From a virus: a DNA stretch of 17,733 nucleotides. The notes under the pieces are model-generated. The model did no database searches. It was not told the DNA's origin and was given only the letters and a program-made list of their open reading frames with translations. Numbering within the stretch: the first letter of the stretch is position 1; the number at the start of each line of letters is the position of its first letter. Location: UHGV virus genome UHGV-0089955; one strand, written 5' to 3'. Below are positions 334 through 15,544 of this stretch, piece after piece. The position numbers were made by a program, and so were the translations under genes.

Positions 334-2322
334 TTATGATGATGCCCGGCTTTCGTTAACTTTGACTGTGACCGTATCAAGCAGTACCGGATACGTCGCT
401 TTTGCCCCCGTGATATCTGTCAGCGTCAGCGTATCTGCTGTAAAGCCATCATTTGTCCACATCACAAGGTCAAACGCCGTCTGCTCTGTACCATCAATCA
501 CCGGAACGACTCTTTCGCTGTTATTTCCCGCAAAGCGGAAAACAACCGTATGCCAGTTATGGTCAAACGCACCAAATGTACCCAGTTGTGCATTCGACGT
601 GCCCTTGTGGTGCATAAGATTCAGATTTGATGCATCCGTCTGAAGGAAGAATGATGCCAGCATACTGTTTGCTGCCGCGCCTGACGCCCACTGCGACACC
701 GGCCAGTAGAGACCAAAGACAAACTGTCCGTTCACCAGTTCGCTTCCATCCGGAATTTTGAACCGTACGGCAATTTCACCCCCCTTGCTGAGAAGATTTT
801 TTGCCTCCTCCACTGCAACAGTACAGAACATTTTCCAGGACGTCAGTTTACCGGGCTGTTTTTCCAGTCGCAGCGCTTTCCGTCCACCGTCATCAGTCAC
901 AGTGCCTTTGCCACCGGCAGCCCCCCACTGCTGCTCTGTCCATACACCATTTCCACTGTTCGCATCATATTCAGCCACCGTCCTGGTACTGCTCACGGCC
1001 TCATCATGACCAGTACCAGCAACACCGCCATCCTGCGGTTTCTCAACACCCGGTACCCCCGGACTGACATCATCACCGGGAGTTGTACCACCCGACTGCG
1101 GTGCGCTCTGCCCGGTAAGGAACGATAATGTCCGCCCGGCGTACTGCAAAATGGCACCTGCCAGGCGGTCTGAAACAATGCCTCTTCGCGCCCATGAACT
1201 GAAGTGCGTTTTACGATCGGCTGACGTCCAGTTACTGGCAGTGCGTGACGCAGCGCCATAGTATCCCGCCGGGATAATGTCCGGATCTTCTGACGGCTCG
1301 TTTGTCGGCACATTCACACCATGCTCATCCGTCATCAACGGCACAAAGTGAATATTCTGCGCAGCTTTGCCTTTATACCCACCGTAAACCGCCTCATACG
1401 GCGCTGCATACCTTTCCTTCCAGTAGTACGTGGTATCACCGCAAATCCACGGGACGCTGGCCGTTGTCCCGCCAGTACACTGCTCTGCCACATCTGCCAG
1501 TTCCGTACGGAACTGATTTACCATGGCAAGGAAAAGCGCATTGTGTTCTGCATGTCTCCCCGAACTGACATCTTTTTCTCCCTGCATCCAAATCACTGAT
1601 AACAGCACGTTCTTCGGATTTTTCTTCAGGGCCGCACGGGTTCTGCTGACCAGGTCACGATACAACGGTTTATCCACCCCCCACAGGGAAGAGCCCGCTG
1701 TCGCACCCGACGCCTCATTAAACGCGCCCTCTGCTCCCGCAGTAAATCCCGAATCGCCACGTCCACACGGGACAAGAAGGATCCCCGCACGGGCAGGCAT
1801 AAACGGCAGCAGTTTTTTGGCCACATGCAGGGCATTCCCCACACAGCCATACTGCCCTTTATTGAGGTCTGCTTTCGGGTGATTCAGATTACTCACGTCC
1901 TGCACATCATGCAGACAATGGTCTGCAGGAATAATGTCGTTATATGCACAGGCCGCACCGCCCGGTGTCACCGTGCTGCGACGCGCCAGTTGCTTAATAC
2001 GCGGGTCAGGACGATCATACGTATCCGGCAGCGGCAGCCCCTCGCCAAAAGACATCGAGTTGGACTGCCCGGCCAGCGCAATGACAAAGTAATATTCCGG
2101 TTCGCTGGTGGTGCTGATAACAGCGCCACCATCACCCGACGGTTGCACCACCACCGGTGTGGTGACATCACCTTCCGCCGCAATGGCCTGCATCAGGGTA
2201 TAGGGCGTGATGGCCACCGGACTGCCAAATGGCTGCCACCCCTCCTTCAGTTTTTGAGTCAGTCGCTCCGCAAGGTCTGACGGCGACGCCGCCCTGACCA
2301 CGTCATAGTGTTTAAATGCCAT
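334..2322 (-). CDS. nanS-p: prophage-type sialate O-acetylesterase (NanS-p-like SGNH/SASA-family hydrolase), 662 aa
   Basis: GQSNS block (AGQSNSMSFGEG) typical of SASA/SGNH esterases, read from the translation; long Gly/Thr-rich linker and C-terminal domain; GGAGG 5 nt upstream of the ATG; position downstream of the phage tRNA array as in Stx-type phages. Family assignment is from remembered motifs, not a search. Confidence 0.75.
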   Translation of the reverse strand: MAFKHYDVVRAASPSDLAERLTQKLKEGWQPFGSPVAITPYTLMQAIAAEGDVTTPVVVQPSGDGGAVISTTSEPEYYFVIALAGQSNSMSFGEGLPLPDTYDRPDPRIKQLARRSTVTPGGAACAYNDIIPADHCLHDVQDVSNLNHPKADLNKGQYGCVGNALHVAKKLLPFMPARAGILLVPCGRGDSGFTAGAEGAFNEASGATAGSSLWGVDKPLYRDLVSRTRAALKKNPKNVLLSVIWMQGEKDVSSGRHAEHNALFLAMVNQFRTELADVAEQCTGGTTASVPWICGDTTYYWKERYAAPYEAVYGGYKGKAAQNIHFVPLMTDEHGVNVPTNEPSEDPDIIPAGYYGAASRTASNWTSADRKTHFSSWARRGIVSDRLAGAILQYAGRTLSFLTGQSAPQSGGTTPGDDVSPGVPGVEKPQDGGVAGTGHDEAVSSTRTVAEYDANSGNGVWTEQQWGAAGGKGTVTDDGGRKALRLEKQPGKLTSWKMFCTVAVEEAKNLLSKGGEIAVRFKIPDGSELVNGQFVFGLYWPVSQWASGAAANSMLASFFLQTDASNLNLMHHKGTSNAQLGTFGAFDHNWHTVVFRFAGNNSERVVPVIDGTEQTAFDLVMWTNDGFTADTLTLTDITGAKATYPVLLDTVTVKVNESRASS

Positions 2323-2952: not shown

Positions 2953-2956
2953 ACTC

Positions 2957-2988
2957 AAAAAAAAGCCTCTACTAAAATTCGTAGAGGC
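2957..2988 (-). terminator. intrinsic terminator on minus strand (GCCTCTAC / GTAGAGGC hairpin + U8)
   Basis: 8-bp stem 2965-2972 / 2981-2988 with 8-nt loop; A8 at 2957-2964 on the + strand gives U8 after the hairpin on the minus strand; convergent with the + strand terminator at 2926-2952. Confidence 0.6.
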
Positions 2989-3014
2989 CTGAATACATTT
3001 CCAATTTTCCACAT

Positions 3015-3220
3015 TATGCATGATGCCGGGTGCCTCCCGGTAGATTCAGCCTGGCAAACTAAATCTGCGGATTGTGACCATCGTAATGGAGCCTTGCCAG
3101 TCGCCCCACCGCTTAGGGGGATTCATCATGCGGAGTGATTTTTAACAAATTCCCCACCAGAAAAACAATAATCACCTTCCTGAATTGTGAGGTATTTAAA
3201 AATTTCACCAGATAACTGAT
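3015..3220. repeat. copy B of the duplicated structured module (micro-ORF homologue 3135-3215, GTG start, frame change relative to copy A)
   Basis: Same hairpin and conserved blocks as copy A; the translated frame NKFPTRKTIITFLNCEVFKNFTR parallels copy A NKKDKTKSTLNSLKCEEFNIFT. Confidence 0.6.
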
Positions 3221-3294: not shown

Positions 3295-3371
3295 TGGCGC
3301 GTTGTACTGGATTCGAACCAGTGACCGATTACTTAGAAGGCAATTGCTCTGTCCGGCTGAGCTAACAACGC
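3295..3371 (-). tRNA. argO: tRNA-Arg, anticodon UCU (reads AGA), 77 nt, CCA encoded
   Basis: Hand-folded cloverleaf: acceptor GCGTTGT/ACAACGC, D-arm GCTC..GAGC, anticodon loop CUUCUAA, T-arm ACTGG-TTCGAAT-CCAGT, 3' GCCA. Third gene of an ileZ-argN-argO-type phage array. Confidence 0.85.
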
Positions 3372-3384
3372 AGAATACCGATAA

Positions 3385-3461
3385 TGGACCGCCATCGAGG
3401 ACTCGAACCCCGCGCAACCAGCTTCGAAGGCTGGCGCTCTATCCTGATGAGCTAATGGCGG
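3385..3461 (-). tRNA. argN: tRNA-Arg, anticodon UCG (reads CGA), 77 nt, CCA encoded
   Basis: Hand-folded cloverleaf: perfect 7-bp acceptor CCGCCAT/ATGGCGG, D-arm GCTC..GAGC, anticodon stem CCAGC/GCTGG with loop CUUCGAA, T-arm CGGGG-TTCGAGT-CCTCG. Confidence 0.8.
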
Positions 3462-3468
3462 TATGTGA

Positions 3469-3545
3469 TGGTGGCCCTTGCTGGATTTGAACCAGCGACC
3501 TGGCGATTATAACTCGCTCTCATCATTTAGCTAAAATGGCTGGGG
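3469..3545 (-). tRNA. ileZ: tRNA-Ile-like gene in the ileZ position; non-canonical, possibly a pseudo-tRNA (anticodon region TTATAA, candidate anticodon UAU)
   Basis: 3' half is canonical (T-arm GCTGG-TTCAAAT-CCAGC, acceptor 3' strand AAGGGCC, discriminator A, CCA). The 5' acceptor strand has two mismatches, and relative to the E. coli tRNA-Ile2 layout as I remember it about 4 nt of the anticodon-stem 5' strand are missing, so I could not fold a full cloverleaf. 5' boundary uncertain. Confidence 0.45.
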
Positions 3546-3665: not shown

Positions 3666-4610
3666 ATGATTTTTCTCAAGAATGGCGAAAGTTTTATTCG
3701 CGTGAATGACTGGGCAGAAATTCAGGCGAGAGAGTCTTACTATCCCAAATTAGAGTTAAATGATCAGCAACTCTCTGACGTTTTTGGTTACTACGATGAC
3801 CTACCAGAGGAAATTCCATGTGGAAAATCAAATTGCCGCAAAGGGCATAAAAAGGGATTTCTGGTAGTTACGAAAGAAGGATTTGAAACGAATATCGGCC
3901 ATGTATGTGGAACTAATGTTTTTGGTATAGCATTTGATAATTTAGCAATAGAACTTTGCCGAAAAGCAGATTTCCATCGCTTACTTACCGCACTTAAAGA
4001 GGCAAAAGATGATATTTTTAGCTATTACAAACTCAAAGCCAAAATCGAATCTGGGCGTCCATCACTAACTGAGGTTGCTCATAGAATACTTGACATGAAA
4101 GACCCTAAAATCATCGGGCGTGCGGCTTATCAAACATTGAAAAAGATGGCTGCTTCTGGTGATGGGCGTGTTTTCCGCTCAAGATTAAAAAATACAGAAG
4201 AGCTAGAACTGGACGAAATTATGTCCCAGAAGCAAACAAGCGACTCAGCTCCAAAAGTTAACAACAAAAACAAAACCGTAAATGAACTTATTGGGGTAAT
4301 ACAATACCCTGAATGCTTGCTGAATGATTATGACATTGCTCTTCTTTATGAAAGAGATATAAAAATGGTTCTGGAAAAATTAAACAAATGTACCCCAGAT
4401 GAATTGACTGAAAGAGAGGTGTTGTCTTTTGGAATAAAGGTTTCAAGATTAAGAGAACGCTTTAACTTTGCTCAGGAACGCTTAGAAAAATCCAGGGTTT
4501 TTGCAACAAGAGAAAACCTTAAACCTTTACGTGCATTACTTAACATTCAGAAATCTGTAAGCAATAAAGACAAATTACTATTTAAGAAATTTATGGAAAA
4601 TTTACCATAA
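3666..4610 (+). CDS. hypothetical protein, 314 aa, AT-rich orphan (moron) gene; possible small Zn-binding module near the N-terminus
   Basis: Long ORF with SD (AAGGA) 7 nt upstream of ATG 3666; followed at 4618-4635 by a GC hairpin; composition visibly more AT-rich than neighbours; convergent with Q. No recognisable catalytic motif. Confidence 0.7.
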   Translation: MIFLKNGESFIRVNDWAEIQARESYYPKLELNDQQLSDVFGYYDDLPEEIPCGKSNCRKGHKKGFLVVTKEGFETNIGHVCGTNVFGIAFDNLAIELCRKADFHRLLTALKEAKDDIFSYYKLKAKIESGRPSLTEVAHRILDMKDPKIIGRAAYQTLKKMAASGDGRVFRSRLKNTEELELDEIMSQKQTSDSAPKVNNKNKTVNELIGVIQYPECLLNDYDIALLYERDIKMVLEKLNKCTPDELTEREVLSFGIKVSRLRERFNFAQERLEKSRVFATRENLKPLRALLNIQKSVSNKDKLLFKKFMENLP

Positions 4611-4635
4611 TTAAAAAACCCGCTATAAAGCGGGT
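4611..4635. terminator. hairpin terminator, strongest on the minus strand (candidate tR' downstream of PR'), also closes the + strand 314-aa gene
   Basis: Stem ACCCGCT (4618-4624) / AGCGGGT (4629-4635), loop ATAA; on the minus strand the hairpin is followed by UUUUUUAA (4611-4617); on the + strand a looser T-rich tract follows (4636-4650). Confidence 0.55.
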
Positions 4636-4677
4636 TCCGTGTTAATTTTTATATTGGCGCTAAACCCCATAATTAAA

Positions 4678-4707
4678 ATGATACAAGACAATTTTATGCA
4701 AAGTCAA
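4678..4707 (-). promoter_or_regulatory. candidate late promoter PR' (-35 TTGACT, 18-bp spacer, -10 TATCAT) immediately downstream of Q
   Basis: Minus-strand reading TTGACT-ttgcataaaattgtcttg-TATCAT; placed between the Q stop (4747) and the hairpin at 4611-4635, the arrangement expected for a Q-dependent PR'/qut/tR' unit. Confidence 0.4.
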
Positions 4708-4746
4708 GTCGGTTGCTCAAAAATCTCTCCGCCAAAGCTGTTCAGA

Positions 4747-5562
4747 TCAGTAACTCGTTGCCTTCTCAAATTCTCTAGCCGCATGCCGCTCACCTTGATG
4801 CAGGATATCAATCAATTTTTCATAGAATGGTTTCCAATTGCGCGACCATGAAGACTGGTGCAGATCGGGAATGTATATTTGAATAGCTCGATGAACATTA
4901 GCTGATTTGATAGATACGAATCCCTTTCCACTACAACGCTCGCAGATTTTAAACACTGGCACACCACGCTCGCTTGTGGCTTTGCGGTCCAGTACCTCTC
5001 CCTTTCCACCACAACGACACCTGGCACTTATCACTCCCTTCCCTTTACATACATCGCAAACGACTGGTACAACTTCCGTTACCTCTGTCCATCTTTCCCA
5101 GTCTGACGGTCGAACAGCACGGGAGCGACTGGCCCAATATGGTGCTTTACCCCATGGGTATGAAACCTTACGAATGACCTGCTTACGGGGTGTTAGTCCG
5201 GTACCACTGCAACTATGGCATGTTACGCTGGTGGCCGCCGATCGGGAATACTCAGCAAAAGCAAACTGAGCCAGTACCAGCATACACCAGCCAAATTCAC
5301 CACCAGCTGCTTTACGCACATTCTTCGGTGCAATTTCCATCGCGTGACGCGCCAGCGCCTGGACTGCCATCTGCTCATCAGTCTTGCTGATACCGGCCTT
5401 CCCGAAGAAGGCCGCCAGGCCAAACCGCTCACGATTACTGGTGGTACCAATAGCCGCCATAACATCGGTGCCTGTAAGACGTTCCGGAGAGGTTCCTTTC
5501 ACATCGTCGCCGATATACATTCCCTGAGGACTGAAGTATTTTAGCGATGCCTCAAGCTTCAT
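4747..5562 (-). CDS. late-gene antiterminator Q-like protein (271 aa) with repeated CxxCxGxG zinc-finger motifs
   Basis: Four Cys pairs (CHSCSGTG, CDVCKGKG, CRCGGKG, CERCSGKG) resembling DnaJ-type zinc fingers; last gene of the replication/nin block and immediately upstream of the PR'-like promoter and tRNA array; start overlaps the upstream stop (TAATG). Confidence 0.6.
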   Translation of the reverse strand: MKLEASLKYFSPQGMYIGDDVKGTSPERLTGTDVMAAIGTTSNRERFGLAAFFGKAGISKTDEQMAVQALARHAMEIAPKNVRKAAGGEFGWCMLVLAQFAFAEYSRSAATSVTCHSCSGTGLTPRKQVIRKVSYPWGKAPYWASRSRAVRPSDWERWTEVTEVVPVVCDVCKGKGVISARCRCGGKGEVLDRKATSERGVPVFKICERCSGKGFVSIKSANVHRAIQIYIPDLHQSSWSRNWKPFYEKLIDILHQGERHAAREFEKATSY

Positions 5563-6419
5563 TATTCACACTCCCCAACCAGATTGAGAATGACCGCTGC
5601 ACCGTCGTCTTCCATGCATTCACCCTTACCACTTGCCAGAAACCAGCGGCACACCTCCACGGCTTCAGCGCGTGTCACCGGTTTGATGGTTGCCAGCAAT
5701 TTTTCAAGGTAGCGCTCGCGGTCATATACCGATTCGTGATGCTCAGAGTAACCAAACTCATCGCCCTGTTCTTTAGTTGCAGTGTGGCGAACACTGTAGA
5801 GCCAGTCCCAGTAAACGAACTCGCGAACAACATCAGACAGCGTATAAGGCTCAGGCAGCACATCGCGATATCCATCAACAAATGCCCGACGCTGTTCATC
5901 AATTTCGTTCATGCGGCTGCCGCCAATGCTTCCGGCTTTTTTCTCTGCCGCAGTCCAGCCCCAGAGATGATCGTTGATAAATTTCTGGGAAGACCTGATG
6001 ACCCGCTCTGCTTCCACATCTTCGAGCGCTGCTTCATAGCTACCAAACGTAGCCCTGACTGATGCCGCTTTTTTGATGTTCTCCCGGGCGTTCCTGATAA
6101 CCTGCGCAGGGTTATCCATGCCGATGATGCCGAACGCAACCTGGAAAGGTTCGTAACCATTCGCCAGCAGATAACGCGAATAGCGTTCCTGAGCCTCTTT
6201 TGGGGAAATTTTAATTTTCACCAGCGCAGCCTCAGCAGCATCCAGATGTGCGGGTTCGTTCAGACGGATAACCTCCAGCACCCAAAGATAAGCATCAGTC
6301 TGCTTATGCCCGGTGATTCTCCGTTGCTCTGGCAGGGGCTTGATGTTTGCGAGGGCGGAGCTGTACGCTGCCGTCGGGATGGTGAATAGTGCTTTATGTT
6401 CGTTATTATCAGTACGCAT
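5562..6419 (-). CDS. hypothetical protein, 285 aa, translationally coupled between primase and Q (nin-region position)
   Basis: ORF with TAATG stop-start overlaps at both ends (6419 and 5562); no motif recognised. Confidence 0.65.
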   Translation of the reverse strand: MRTDNNEHKALFTIPTAAYSSALANIKPLPEQRRITGHKQTDAYLWVLEVIRLNEPAHLDAAEAALVKIKISPKEAQERYSRYLLANGYEPFQVAFGIIGMDNPAQVIRNARENIKKAASVRATFGSYEAALEDVEAERVIRSSQKFINDHLWGWTAAEKKAGSIGGSRMNEIDEQRRAFVDGYRDVLPEPYTLSDVVREFVYWDWLYSVRHTATKEQGDEFGYSEHHESVYDRERYLEKLLATIKPVTRAEAVEVCRWFLASGKGECMEDDGAAVILNLVGECE

Positions 6420-14185: not shown

Positions 14186-14228
14186 TACATATGCCCGGTA
14201 TTACACGCCGGGCTGTCTGGAGATAAAA

Positions 14229-14978
14229 ATGAATATTGTAACCATCAACAACAAACAGTTTCCGGTAATCGAATATCGCGGTCAGCGTGTTGTGACATTT
14301 GCAATGATTGATGACGTCCACCAGCGCCCGGAAGGTACCGCCCGTGCTGCGTTTAACCGCAACCGTTCTCACTTTATCGAAGGGGTGGATTTTCTTGAAA
14401 TGACTGCGGACGTAATACGTACGGAGTCACTTTCTGATGCCTTTGCCGCGCGAACTGCCAAAGGGATCATTCTTTTCGAGTCTGGTTACCTGATGTTGAC
14501 GAAGCCTTTTAACGATGCTCTTGCATGGCAGGTTCAGCGCGAACTGGTTAACAGCTATTTCCGAACTCATGCGCCGCTGACGGAAATGGAGATGATCGCT
14601 GCAATGGCCGCCGATGCCGTTCGCCAGCAGAAGCGCCTGAGTCATGTTGAAGAGAAGATCGAAACGGTCACCAAAGCTGTGGAGAACATCAAACGCGGCA
14701 CAATGCGCACTGGATATGTCGGTTACCGCCAGGTGGTAGCCAAAAGCGGAATGAGTGACGCCAAGTGTCGGAATCTGGTCAACGCCTACCACATCCCTAC
14801 CGACACGCACGAATTTATGACTCCGGACGGTCTGTTGTCTCGCAGGGCTGTCGTCGAGCTTGAGACATTTATGGCGGCGTTCCACCAAATGATGTCAGAG
14901 GCTGAACCACGCGGCACACGCTGGTATCACCCGAAGATGGGGCTTTTCCAGGTAATCGGATGGGAGGATAAAGCATGA
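14229..14978 (+). CDS. KilA-N/ORF6N-like domain protein (putative antirepressor-like), 249 aa
   Basis: Start set at ATG 14229 (GGAGA 6 nt upstream) rather than the track start 14154; the N-terminal region (FPVIEYRGQRVVTFAMIDDVHQRPEGTARAAFNRN) resembles KilA-N/ORF6N-type phage DNA-binding domains, a weak assignment from memory. Confidence 0.4.
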   Translation: MNIVTINNKQFPVIEYRGQRVVTFAMIDDVHQRPEGTARAAFNRNRSHFIEGVDFLEMTADVIRTESLSDAFAARTAKGIILFESGYLMLTKPFNDALAWQVQRELVNSYFRTHAPLTEMEMIAAMAADAVRQQKRLSHVEEKIETVTKAVENIKRGTMRTGYVGYRQVVAKSGMSDAKCRNLVNAYHIPTDTHEFMTPDGLLSRRAVVELETFMAAFHQMMSEAEPRGTRWYHPKMGLFQVIGWEDKA

Positions 14979-15544
14979 TCATCCAGTCAAAACTTATTCG
15001 CGCCGCTCTGGTGTGCGCTGCTAAAAACGACGTTCGTTATTACCTGAATGGTCTTCACATCACGCCAAAACATATTGAGGCAACCAATGGTTCCGTGGCA
15101 CTGCGCATGACTCACGGCATCCGGACGAAGAAAAACATCATTGTCCAGTTCGAAGGTGGCGTCCCGGCCAAAGCCGAAACGACAGAGCTGATTTTTAGTA
15201 AAGAGCCGATCGCTGTTCATCGCGACCAGTTTCAGCGCCGACTGTCCATTACCGGCATTAAATTGGTGGACGGTTGTTTTCCGGATTTGGAACGCATCAT
15301 TCCGAAAAAATTTGACCTCTGTACACACCCGGTGATCCAGGCGGGTTACCTGAGTTATCCAGAGAAGATGTTTGGTCGTGAGCGTAAATTTATTCCCGTC
15401 CAGTTACGTCCCTCCGGTGACGGGCAAGCGGTCAGAATTCAGTTTGATTCCATCATCAACTCAATGTATGGCAATCCTGAATTTGTTGTGATGCCTTGTC
15501 GTGATCATGGCGATTTCAATGTGGCTCAGGAGCATCCGGAATGA
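14975..15544 (+). CDS. truncated DNA polymerase III beta-clamp (DnaN) homologue, 189 aa, about one clamp domain plus a C-terminal extension
   Basis: Motifs matching E. coli DnaN domain II as I recall it: DVRYYLNG (identical), ATNGSVALRM vs ATDGHRLAV, KLVDGCFPDLERIIPK vs KLVDGRFPDYRRVLPK; ATGA coupling at both ends. Confidence 0.7.
   Translation: MIIQSKLIRAALVCAAKNDVRYYLNGLHITPKHIEATNGSVALRMTHGIRTKKNIIVQFEGGVPAKAETTELIFSKEPIAVHRDQFQRRLSITGIKLVDGCFPDLERIIPKKFDLCTHPVIQAGYLSYPEKMFGRERKFIPVQLRPSGDGQAVRIQFDSIINSMYGNPEFVVMPCRDHGDFNVAQEHPE

Follow-up and report, generated by a model that had tools for sequence, protein, structure and literature searches.

Among the closest described counterparts of the locus studied here is the Eru1 unit, in which a superfamily 2 (SF2) DEAH helicase, Eru1A, is followed by a Toprim primase, Eru1B, and in which Eru1C is a 149-aa DUF1367 protein (Llarena et al. 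2021, PMC8044961). The protein at the Eru1C position is named NinB/Orf recombination mediator in RefSeq. In phage TL-2011c, which combines an Eru1 module with a lambda-type nin region, the slot between the replication genes and the antiterminator gene Q is filled by NinB/Orf, NinG, and NinH. We analyzed a 17,733-nucleotide stretch of the virus genome UHGV-0089955 (hereafter, the window), a lambdoid prophage inserted beside yecE in commensal E. coli such as SCU-106. Its genes are ordered int-xis, early left operon, LexA-family repressor, cro, helicase, primase, the gene under study (hereafter, the target gene), Q, lysis, and head genes. The target gene is a minus-strand open reading frame (ORF; 5562..6419) with an ATG start, encoding 285 aa. 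Our preferred reading, to which we give a probability of about 0.38, is that it encodes a non-enzymatic accessory protein whose site of action is replicating phage DNA or the replisome, with no dedicated partner in the primase or in Q.

The window has the gene order of Eru1A and Eru1B, with ResIII/Helicase_C followed by Zn_Ribbon_Prim/Toprim_3, and shares the helicase-primase backbone of TL-2011c, whose primase is 57.5% identical to that of the window. The slot lies in the same place in both, and its first gene overlaps the primase stop codon in TL-2011c as well. The window differs in that a single gene fills the slot and in that this third gene encodes a protein unrelated to Eru1C. A preliminary description of this DNA had placed a lone gene where lambda has its nin region, with primase and Q as neighbors and TAATG overlaps on both flanks (6419 and 5562). 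The junction letters bear out the overlaps, the neighbors were recovered by Pfam profile matches, and the three nin genes of TL-2011c occupy exactly that slot. Identity with a characterized nin-region protein, the alternative named in the same description, was searched for by profile, and the target had no match to NinB/Orf, NinG/Rap, NinH, NinI phosphatase, or Ren in Pfam, NCBIfam, or PHROGs.

The target is a real gene under purifying selection, and its family, though small, is genuine. Escherichia phage vB_EcoS-611R1 has a copy that is 100% identical, the Fels-1 orthologue (STM0902) is 82% identical, and the gene was found in 97 of 5426 complete E. coli genomes. A collection of 5.8 billion proteins contained 390 relatives, and an exhaustive HMMER search of 1.84 billion representatives delimited the family as 143 clusters at 50% identity. 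The ratio of nonsynonymous to synonymous divergence (dN/dS, Nei-Gojobori) was 0.10-0.13 against five relatives, with the primase and Q in the same range. An N-terminal extension of the target is impossible because an in-frame TAA lies 21 nt 5' of the ATG with no alternative start in between. A 171-aa ORF runs antisense to the gene (window 5547-6062, plus strand); it is most likely spurious, the signal of purifying selection sitting in the minus-strand frame.

Members of the family usually form the final gene of a replication module, both in temperate phages and in satellites, with Gamma- and Betaproteobacteria as hosts. In 91 of the 108 family loci inspected by tblastn and by a Pfam census, a replication gene ended at most 4 kb upstream on the same strand, a count in which the loci are phylogenetically redundant and do not stand for independent events, the diversity of helicase types being its meaningful part. 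At least four unrelated types accompany the family (SF2 with a Toprim primase, DUF927, DnaB/AAA_25, and DUF3987), and the family is therefore not adapted to one helicase/primase system. In Pseudomonas, a Toprim primase, a DUF927 helicase, and a conserved 244-aa protein precede a homologue with a helix-turn-helix (HTH), in AlpA-containing integrative elements that resemble satellites. In lambdoid viral contigs, Zn_Ribbon_Prim+Toprim_3+DUF927, or DUF927 alone, is followed by a gene for a single-stranded DNA-binding protein (SSB) or ProQ/FinO and then by an HTH-bearing homologue, and in many of them the next gene is Q, up to 80% identical to that of the window. Homologues without an HTH and with an overlapping start follow a DnaC-like and DnaB pair, and another such homologue follows a Toprim_2+AAA_25 protein of the T7 gp4 type; other loci have PriCT_2+AAA_25 or DUF3987 upstream. 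From Escherichia to Pseudomonas and Betaproteobacteria, the family core is conserved at 22-50% identity.

Two candidate relationships were rejected. The conserved upstream neighbor in the Pseudomonas loci, c3, shows no kinship with the target family (hhalign probability 0.1%). The Rpp protein of phage-inducible chromosomal islands (PICIs) lies downstream of the replication module in Gram-negative satellites, like some HTH-bearing members of the family, and is a protein of 144-153 aa with a winged HTH, a coiled-coil dimerization helix, and beta strands (PMC6739421). An Rpp-like packaging redirector was set aside, the target having 285 aa, an all-alpha model, and no match to such a fold in the PDB. 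With regard to helicase loaders and replisome organizers, the target had no Pfam or PDB sequence match to lambda P, DnaC/IstB, or DnaD-like proteins, and the DnaB-type loci already have a separate IstB/DnaC-like gene upstream.

The target protein (32.4 kDa, isoelectric point 5.4, net charge -9) matches phrog_6204 with an E-value of 2.4e-182, residues 1-285 aligning with profile positions 1-285 of 286. This profile carries no functional annotation, and the distant relatives P0288, P0190, P0142, P0200, and P0134 fall there too. The C-terminal third also matches phrog_19083 and phrog_2887 (E 5.4e-22 over residues 170-285). Nothing significant was found in Pfam, NCBIfam, or PADLOC (0 families at E<=0.1 in the latter), the lone Pfam match being UPF0020 at E 0.009, under its curated cut-off. 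No PDB chain sequence was matched either with the single sequence or with a 121-sequence profile, and no profile library searched gave an enzymatic signature. The absence of nucleotide-binding, methyltransferase, and nuclease motifs noted in the preliminary description agrees with these searches, the sub-threshold UPF0020 match aside. The structure prediction that it had proposed yielded a confident model: AlphaFold2 with the 121-sequence alignment predicted 15 helices and 0 strands (predicted local distance difference test, pLDDT, 95; predicted template modeling score, pTM, 0.89), superseding an unusable model from a shallow alignment (23 sequences at >=79% identity; pLDDT 54). Foldseek returned no counterpart at E<=0.001 among all PDB chains and BFVD. 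The top fold matches, none of which reached that threshold, were non-catalytic helical repeats.

Conservation was scored as column identity over 112 diverse family sequences, residues being listed at >=75%, and three segments stand out (Table 1). In the N-terminal peptide, N5, F12, and P15 are kept in 87-94% of the relatives compared. In the signature that follows, T36 and G37 reach 96%, D42 95%, and W46 94%. In the clade of the window, the signature reads TGHKQTDA, two of its three acidic positions being lost (H38, Q40). The third segment is the C-terminal lobe, and other conserved positions are R79-Y80, F125-G126, E138 in a T-P-A-E motif, and Y203. The acidic residues D42, E138, E200, and E252 are kept in 83-95% of the diverse relatives and the basic residues R79, R211, and R234 in 79-89%.

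A natural short form shows which parts go together. The phrog_2887 protein of Klebsiella phages such as ST11-OXA48phi15.1 (157-158 aa) is homologous to the N-terminal peptide and the C-terminal lobe of the target, with 42% identity over target residues 172-285 by tblastn. It lacks roughly residues 16-130, the lobe bearing the TGDxExDAxLW signature. Like the target, this protein, 158 aa in the variant P0186 that retains the peptide, occupies the slot with overlaps of the primase stop and the Q start. Database matches to the C-terminal lobe alone look like fragments or internal deletions, with no informative extra domains. We considered the N-terminal N-x-x-H-x-x-LF as a disordered docking motif of the beta-clamp type and rejected it: the model has the N-terminal 38 residues extended yet confidently placed within the fold, residues 1-20 having a pLDDT of about 90, and the short form keeps the peptide and the C-terminal lobe together. 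A DNA mimic was rejected as well, the protein being only mildly acidic.

Most relatives carry a DNA-binding module that the window protein lacks. Among 82 full-length representative clusters, the N-terminus is extended by more than 30 residues in 50 (about 60%) and not at all in 25 (about 30%). In these extensions Pfam recognized Sigma70_r4_2 in 16 of the 82 members, HTH_23 in 12, related HTH families, and one Bro-N domain (P0142); ParB-like N-termini are found in P0200 and P0212. The HTH-bearing members of Pseudomonas and lambdoid contigs, called 'sigma-70 region 4 domain-containing protein', share the core with the target at 22-52% identity and likewise stand at the end of a replication module, usually after a DUF927 helicase and an SSB or ProQ gene and not after an SF2 helicase and a separate primase. 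Their HTH sits in an extension of about 45 residues (the Pfam HTH matches of P0245 span residues 6-42), and the window protein starts where the extension ends, as seen when RSGLFRDNPEH in P0122 is compared with MRTDNNEH in the window. In NCBI, proteins 80-92% identical to the target are named 'helix-turn-helix domain-containing protein'. For the window protein, Pfam returned no HTH family at E<=0.1 and NCBIfam nothing, and no winged-helix or HTH protein stands first among its fold matches. The name is thus wrong for the clade of the window, the HTH being found only in other branches of the family.

The link of the target gene to its two neighbors was analyzed in 82 close loci, one of which is the window's own segment. 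In the 81 others, the target gene comes immediately after the end of the primase. Q, on the other side, was swapped for unrelated antiterminators in about 20 of the 82 with the target gene remaining; in E. coli TUM1886, for example, a 140-aa antiterminator of another family takes the place of Q with an identical one-base overlap. A family member is present in only 12 of the 129 phage records whose primase is homologous. Synonymous divergence (dS) from Fels-1 was 0.26 for the primase and 1.04 for the target gene, and in the comparison with the related locus L042 it was 0.46 for the target gene with the primase saturated. Since synonymous divergence shifts abruptly at both gene borders, the target gene is exchanged as a cassette of its own.

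The upstream junction reads GCGTAATGCGT, and the TAA that ends the primase (6421-6419) overlaps the target ATG (6419-6417) by 1 nt. At the downstream junction, GAATAATGAAG, the A at 5562 is common to the target stop TAA (5564-5562) and the Q ATG (5562-5560), and the final codons of the target gene contain a Shine-Dalgarno sequence, GGGGAG, 8 nt ahead of the Q ATG. The overlaps are real, yet they are ordinary phage operon architecture rather than a special signal. Tight packing is a trait of the entire operon, because the helicase and primase genes are also only 1 nt apart, and it recurs in relatives with differing junction types, the Q-side junction of Fels-1 being a 4-nt ATGA-type overlap.

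The facts to be explained are a constrained all-alpha core lacking an enzymatic signature, swappable DNA-binding modules in most relatives, a position at the end of modules of any type, and a dispensable gene that moves as a cassette, and it is these that lead us to favor a non-catalytic accessory protein. In this reading, the product is soluble and all-alpha, one lobe being N-terminal and the other C-terminal, and its core would serve as a non-catalytic protein-interaction module. The core would act on replicating phage DNA or on a factor shared by all these replication systems (the fork, SSB-coated DNA, or a component of the host replisome, for example), not on one particular primase or helicase. 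Most relatives would bring it to DNA with a DNA-binding domain of their own, and the untethered form of the window would depend on contacts with other proteins to arrive at its site; the overlap of stop and start codons may couple synthesis of this form to that of the primase. A more ambitious version, which we regard as doubtful, holds that the family is a structurally new 'module-capping' replication factor able to work with at least four unrelated helicase/primase systems through a target common to them, whether the origin-proximal fork, a host replisome subunit, or DNA coated with SSB. Forms with an HTH, ParB-like, or Bro-N domain would be tethered to DNA near the origin, and translation coupled to that of the primase would deliver the Fels-1-type form.

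Several observations weigh against an accessory role in replication, in addition to the redundancy of the 108 loci. In Yersinia phage YP3, which lacks the target gene, Q comes directly after a primase of 84% identity, and the Stx (Shiga toxin) phage TL-2011c manages with NinB-NinG-NinH beside a homologous helicase-primase pair. In a prophage of E. coli 2013C-3033 (L133, 3548-5747), an IS3-family element splits the target orthologue. In five loci from Pseudomonas and Betaproteobacteria (Achromobacter, Pigmentiphaga), the homologue lies between a cI-like repressor and xis/int. The position after replication genes may only mean a permissive slot, home of lambdoid nin cargo, and the conserved acidic and basic residues could form an active site. 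Searches of the literature with STM0902, phrog_6204, and accession numbers found no publication on the family; the sole mention of STM0902 is within a predicted operon, STM0900-STM0903, from an operon analysis of Salmonella treated with the mutagen MX.

The target gene is dispensable for the helicase-primase-Q backbone. The exchange of Q, the absence of the gene from YP3, its presence in so few primase-bearing records, the jumps in dS, and the IS3-split copy together argue that it has no dedicated primase or Q partner. The preliminary description had proposed a stoichiometric partner in replication or late-gene control; the link to replication holds at the level of the module (91 of 108 loci), but not as a dedicated partnership with primase or Q. 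Two further observations concern these loci. The prophage with the IS3-split orthologue carries a type I restriction-modification cargo downstream of Q. In the related contigs L032 and L039 (about 4495-5998), only the final 91 primase residues are detectable, with the helicase match abutting, which suggests a deletion that fused helicase to primase and left the target gene and Q intact.

Bro-N/KilA-N anti-repressor-like proteins occur in early operons and nin regions, Roi of HK022 being a Bro-N protein of the latter kind, and Ant and Roi resemble the family in combining swappable N-terminal DNA-binding modules with a conserved C-terminal effector. The target could accordingly be viewed as a regulator of transcription or of the lysis-lysogeny decision, the core being an effector that binds a repressor or RNA polymerase, most relatives reaching DNA through their HTH or Bro-N domain, and the window form being a free effector. 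Such a role agrees with the fusion of an Ant-typical Bro-N N-terminus to the core in P0142, with the sigma-70 region-4-like HTH of most relatives, with the location of some homologues in the cI-to-int arm, and with that of the gene just before Q in lambdoid phages or before packaging or tail genes in Pseudomonas elements. We consider it unlikely. Unlike Ant and Roi, the family has no similarity to the C-terminal domains ANT, KilA-C, or P22_AR_C in Pfam or PHROGs, and the window protein has none of the N-terminal domains Bro-N, KilA-N, or ORF6N in these libraries either. The Q partner is freely exchanged, the prophage already has an ORF6N anti-repressor, and an effector aimed at a repressor would be expected to follow immunity types, whereas the family follows replication modules.

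The dispensability of the gene, its movement as an independent module with dS jumps at both borders, the variability of the slot, and the lack of a known fold or family would also suit cargo for conflict, that is, an anti-defense or superinfection-exclusion protein in which the HTH of the relatives would be an autoregulator, as in the anti-CRISPR AcrIIA1. Fusions of an HTH to an effector, with orthologues lacking the HTH, are typical of Acr/Aca fusions. This explanation seems to us quite unlikely: there is no PADLOC match, dN/dS is low, as it is in the primase and Q, and does not hint at an arms race, and the deep conservation of the core (22-50% identity) points to a conserved target. A length of 285 aa and ParB-like fusions in relatives are atypical of an inhibitor, and positional fidelity to replication modules is not expected of defense or anti-defense cargo. 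A DNA-acting enzyme, either a new all-alpha nuclease or another DNA-processing activity whose conserved acidic residues would form a metal site, is very improbable, since against the conserved acidic and basic positions, the DNA-binding fusions of relatives, and the recombination and resolution enzymes (NinB, NinG, RusA) that occupy the slot in other lambdoid phages stand the lack of any profile or fold match to a nuclease or other enzyme, fold matches led by non-catalytic helical repeats, the two acidic residues of TGDxExD gone in the window clade, and a RusA-like resolvase already encoded by the phage. In view of this resolvase, a stand-in role in Holliday-junction resolution was rejected as well.

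Replication origins were sought around the family loci. Directly 3' of the DUF927 genes, ahead of the SSB gene and the homologue, are dense iterons in direct and inverted orientation (Table 1); these are probably replication origins, by analogy with their position in the pri-rep-ori modules of Staphylococcus aureus pathogenicity islands (SaPIs) and PICIs. An origin in or beside the target gene was rejected: no iterons and no AT-rich tract were found in 5400-6500. Between a 102-aa ORF and the helicase, the window has a 413-nt non-coding gap (9048-9460) whose GC skew is strongly negative (to -0.38); around 9325-9355, its minus strand carries the G-rich near-tandem motif GGTAAGGGGGGTAAGGGGGG. This region holds a NUMOD4 homing-endonuclease-like gene in E. 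coli TUM1886 and STM0899 in Fels-1. The gap could hold the origin of the SF2/primase module. In the Pseudomonas elements L083, L085, L089, L099, and L132, the homologue is followed by a lambda gpI-like tail assembly protein (phrog_32, E 1.9e-57), and three of these five also encode a protein of about 1120 aa resembling a tape-measure protein. Tail genes are odd content for satellite-like elements.

The other features of the prophage are listed in Table 1. The primase was further identified by its match to phrog_510 (DNA primase; E 1.8e-130). The promoter and terminator downstream of Q form, as read from the sequence, the classic pR'/tR' arrangement for Q action. Between this Q-dependent terminator and the tRNA genes, a 314-aa ORF on the opposite strand (3666-4610, plus) lies where stx sits as cargo in Stx phages. 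The ORF is AT-rich, with a GC content of 0.29-0.41 in surroundings of about 0.52; its sole match is phrog_7003 of unknown function, with none in Pfam, NCBIfam, or PADLOC, and related contigs have at the same position an ORF of about 320 aa that is just 25-31% identical. It may be a diversifying moron or defense gene. The tRNA layout resembles the ileZ-argN-argO cluster of Stx phages, stx genes being absent; the third tRNA-like element scored 32.6 bits in Rfam and was not called by ARAGORN. From its domains, the 662-aa protein seems to be a 9-O-acetyl sialic acid esterase of the NanS-p type, which is typical of Stx-phage late regions. No recognizable single-strand annealing recombinase or exonuclease was seen in the early left operon. 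Taken as a whole, the prophage resembles a relative of Stx phages that lacks stx, and it comes from a commensal E. coli.

Table 1. Coordinates of the features discussed. Positions refer to the window unless a related contig is named.
Feature	Position	Strand	Description
Target protein, 285 aa	5562..6419	-	phrog_6204; all-alpha, form without N-terminal HTH
N-terminal peptide, codons 1-15	6375..6419	-	Consensus DN-x-x-H-x-x-LF-x-(L/I)-P
Signature T-G-D-x-E-x-D-A-x-L-W-L, codons 36-47	6279..6314	-	In the window: TGHKQTDAYLWV
C-terminal lobe, codons 190-285	5565..5852	-	Conserved P191, E200, W204, R211, R234, P247, E252, N279-L280
TAATG junction, primase stop and target start	6417..6421	-	One shared A; same geometry in 82/82 close loci
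TAATG junction, target stop and Q start	5560..5564	-	One shared A
SF2 helicase, 552 aa	7389..9047	-	First gene of the replication module; ResIII + Helicase_C, C-terminal zinc ribbon
P4-type DNA primase, 322 aa	6419..7387	-	Upstream neighbor; Zn_Ribbon_Prim + DUF7146 + Toprim_3
Antiterminator Q, 271 aa	4747..5562	-	Downstream neighbor; PF03589, E 4.6e-51
Sigma-70-type promoter, TTGACT/18-nt spacer/TATCAT	4678-4707	-	10/12 matches; 40 nt downstream of Q
Strong intrinsic terminator	4615-4638	-	10-bp stem + T run; about 40 nt past the promoter
Two tRNA-Arg genes (anticodons TCT, TCG) and a third, weak tRNA-like element	3295-3371, 3385-3461, 3472-3540	-	
Two tandem STnc100 small RNA copies	2545-2757, 2953-3161	-	RF02076; 147 and 122 bits; between the tRNAs and the esterase gene
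662-aa protein	334-2322	-	DUF1737 + SASA esterase + DUF6645
Early left operon: RusA-like Holliday-junction resolvase (phrog_3007), ORF6N-type anti-repressor, SPFH-domain protein	14975-15544, 14154-14978, 13358-14185	+	
TGAACCAAC repeats	L155 4897-5023; L165 5365-5498		Enterobacterial-type contigs
GGGGGAAC repeats	L083 5636-5880; L132 6788-7034		Pseudomonas

Nothing so far shows an unusual mechanism; it is the genomic position of the family that is unusually consistent. If the target were ordinary nin-type cargo, it would be one more conserved phage ORF without an assigned function. Two results are useful even without a function, namely that the target gene is an independently exchanged cassette outside the primase or Q machinery and that a widely propagated HTH name is wrong for this clade. 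If the proposed role in replication is true, the family would be a new and widespread player in the replication modules of temperate phages and satellites, with a new protein fold as well, and it would extend to the non-lambdoid (Eru-type) relatives of Stx phages, whose replication has barely been studied and whose induction drives toxin production.

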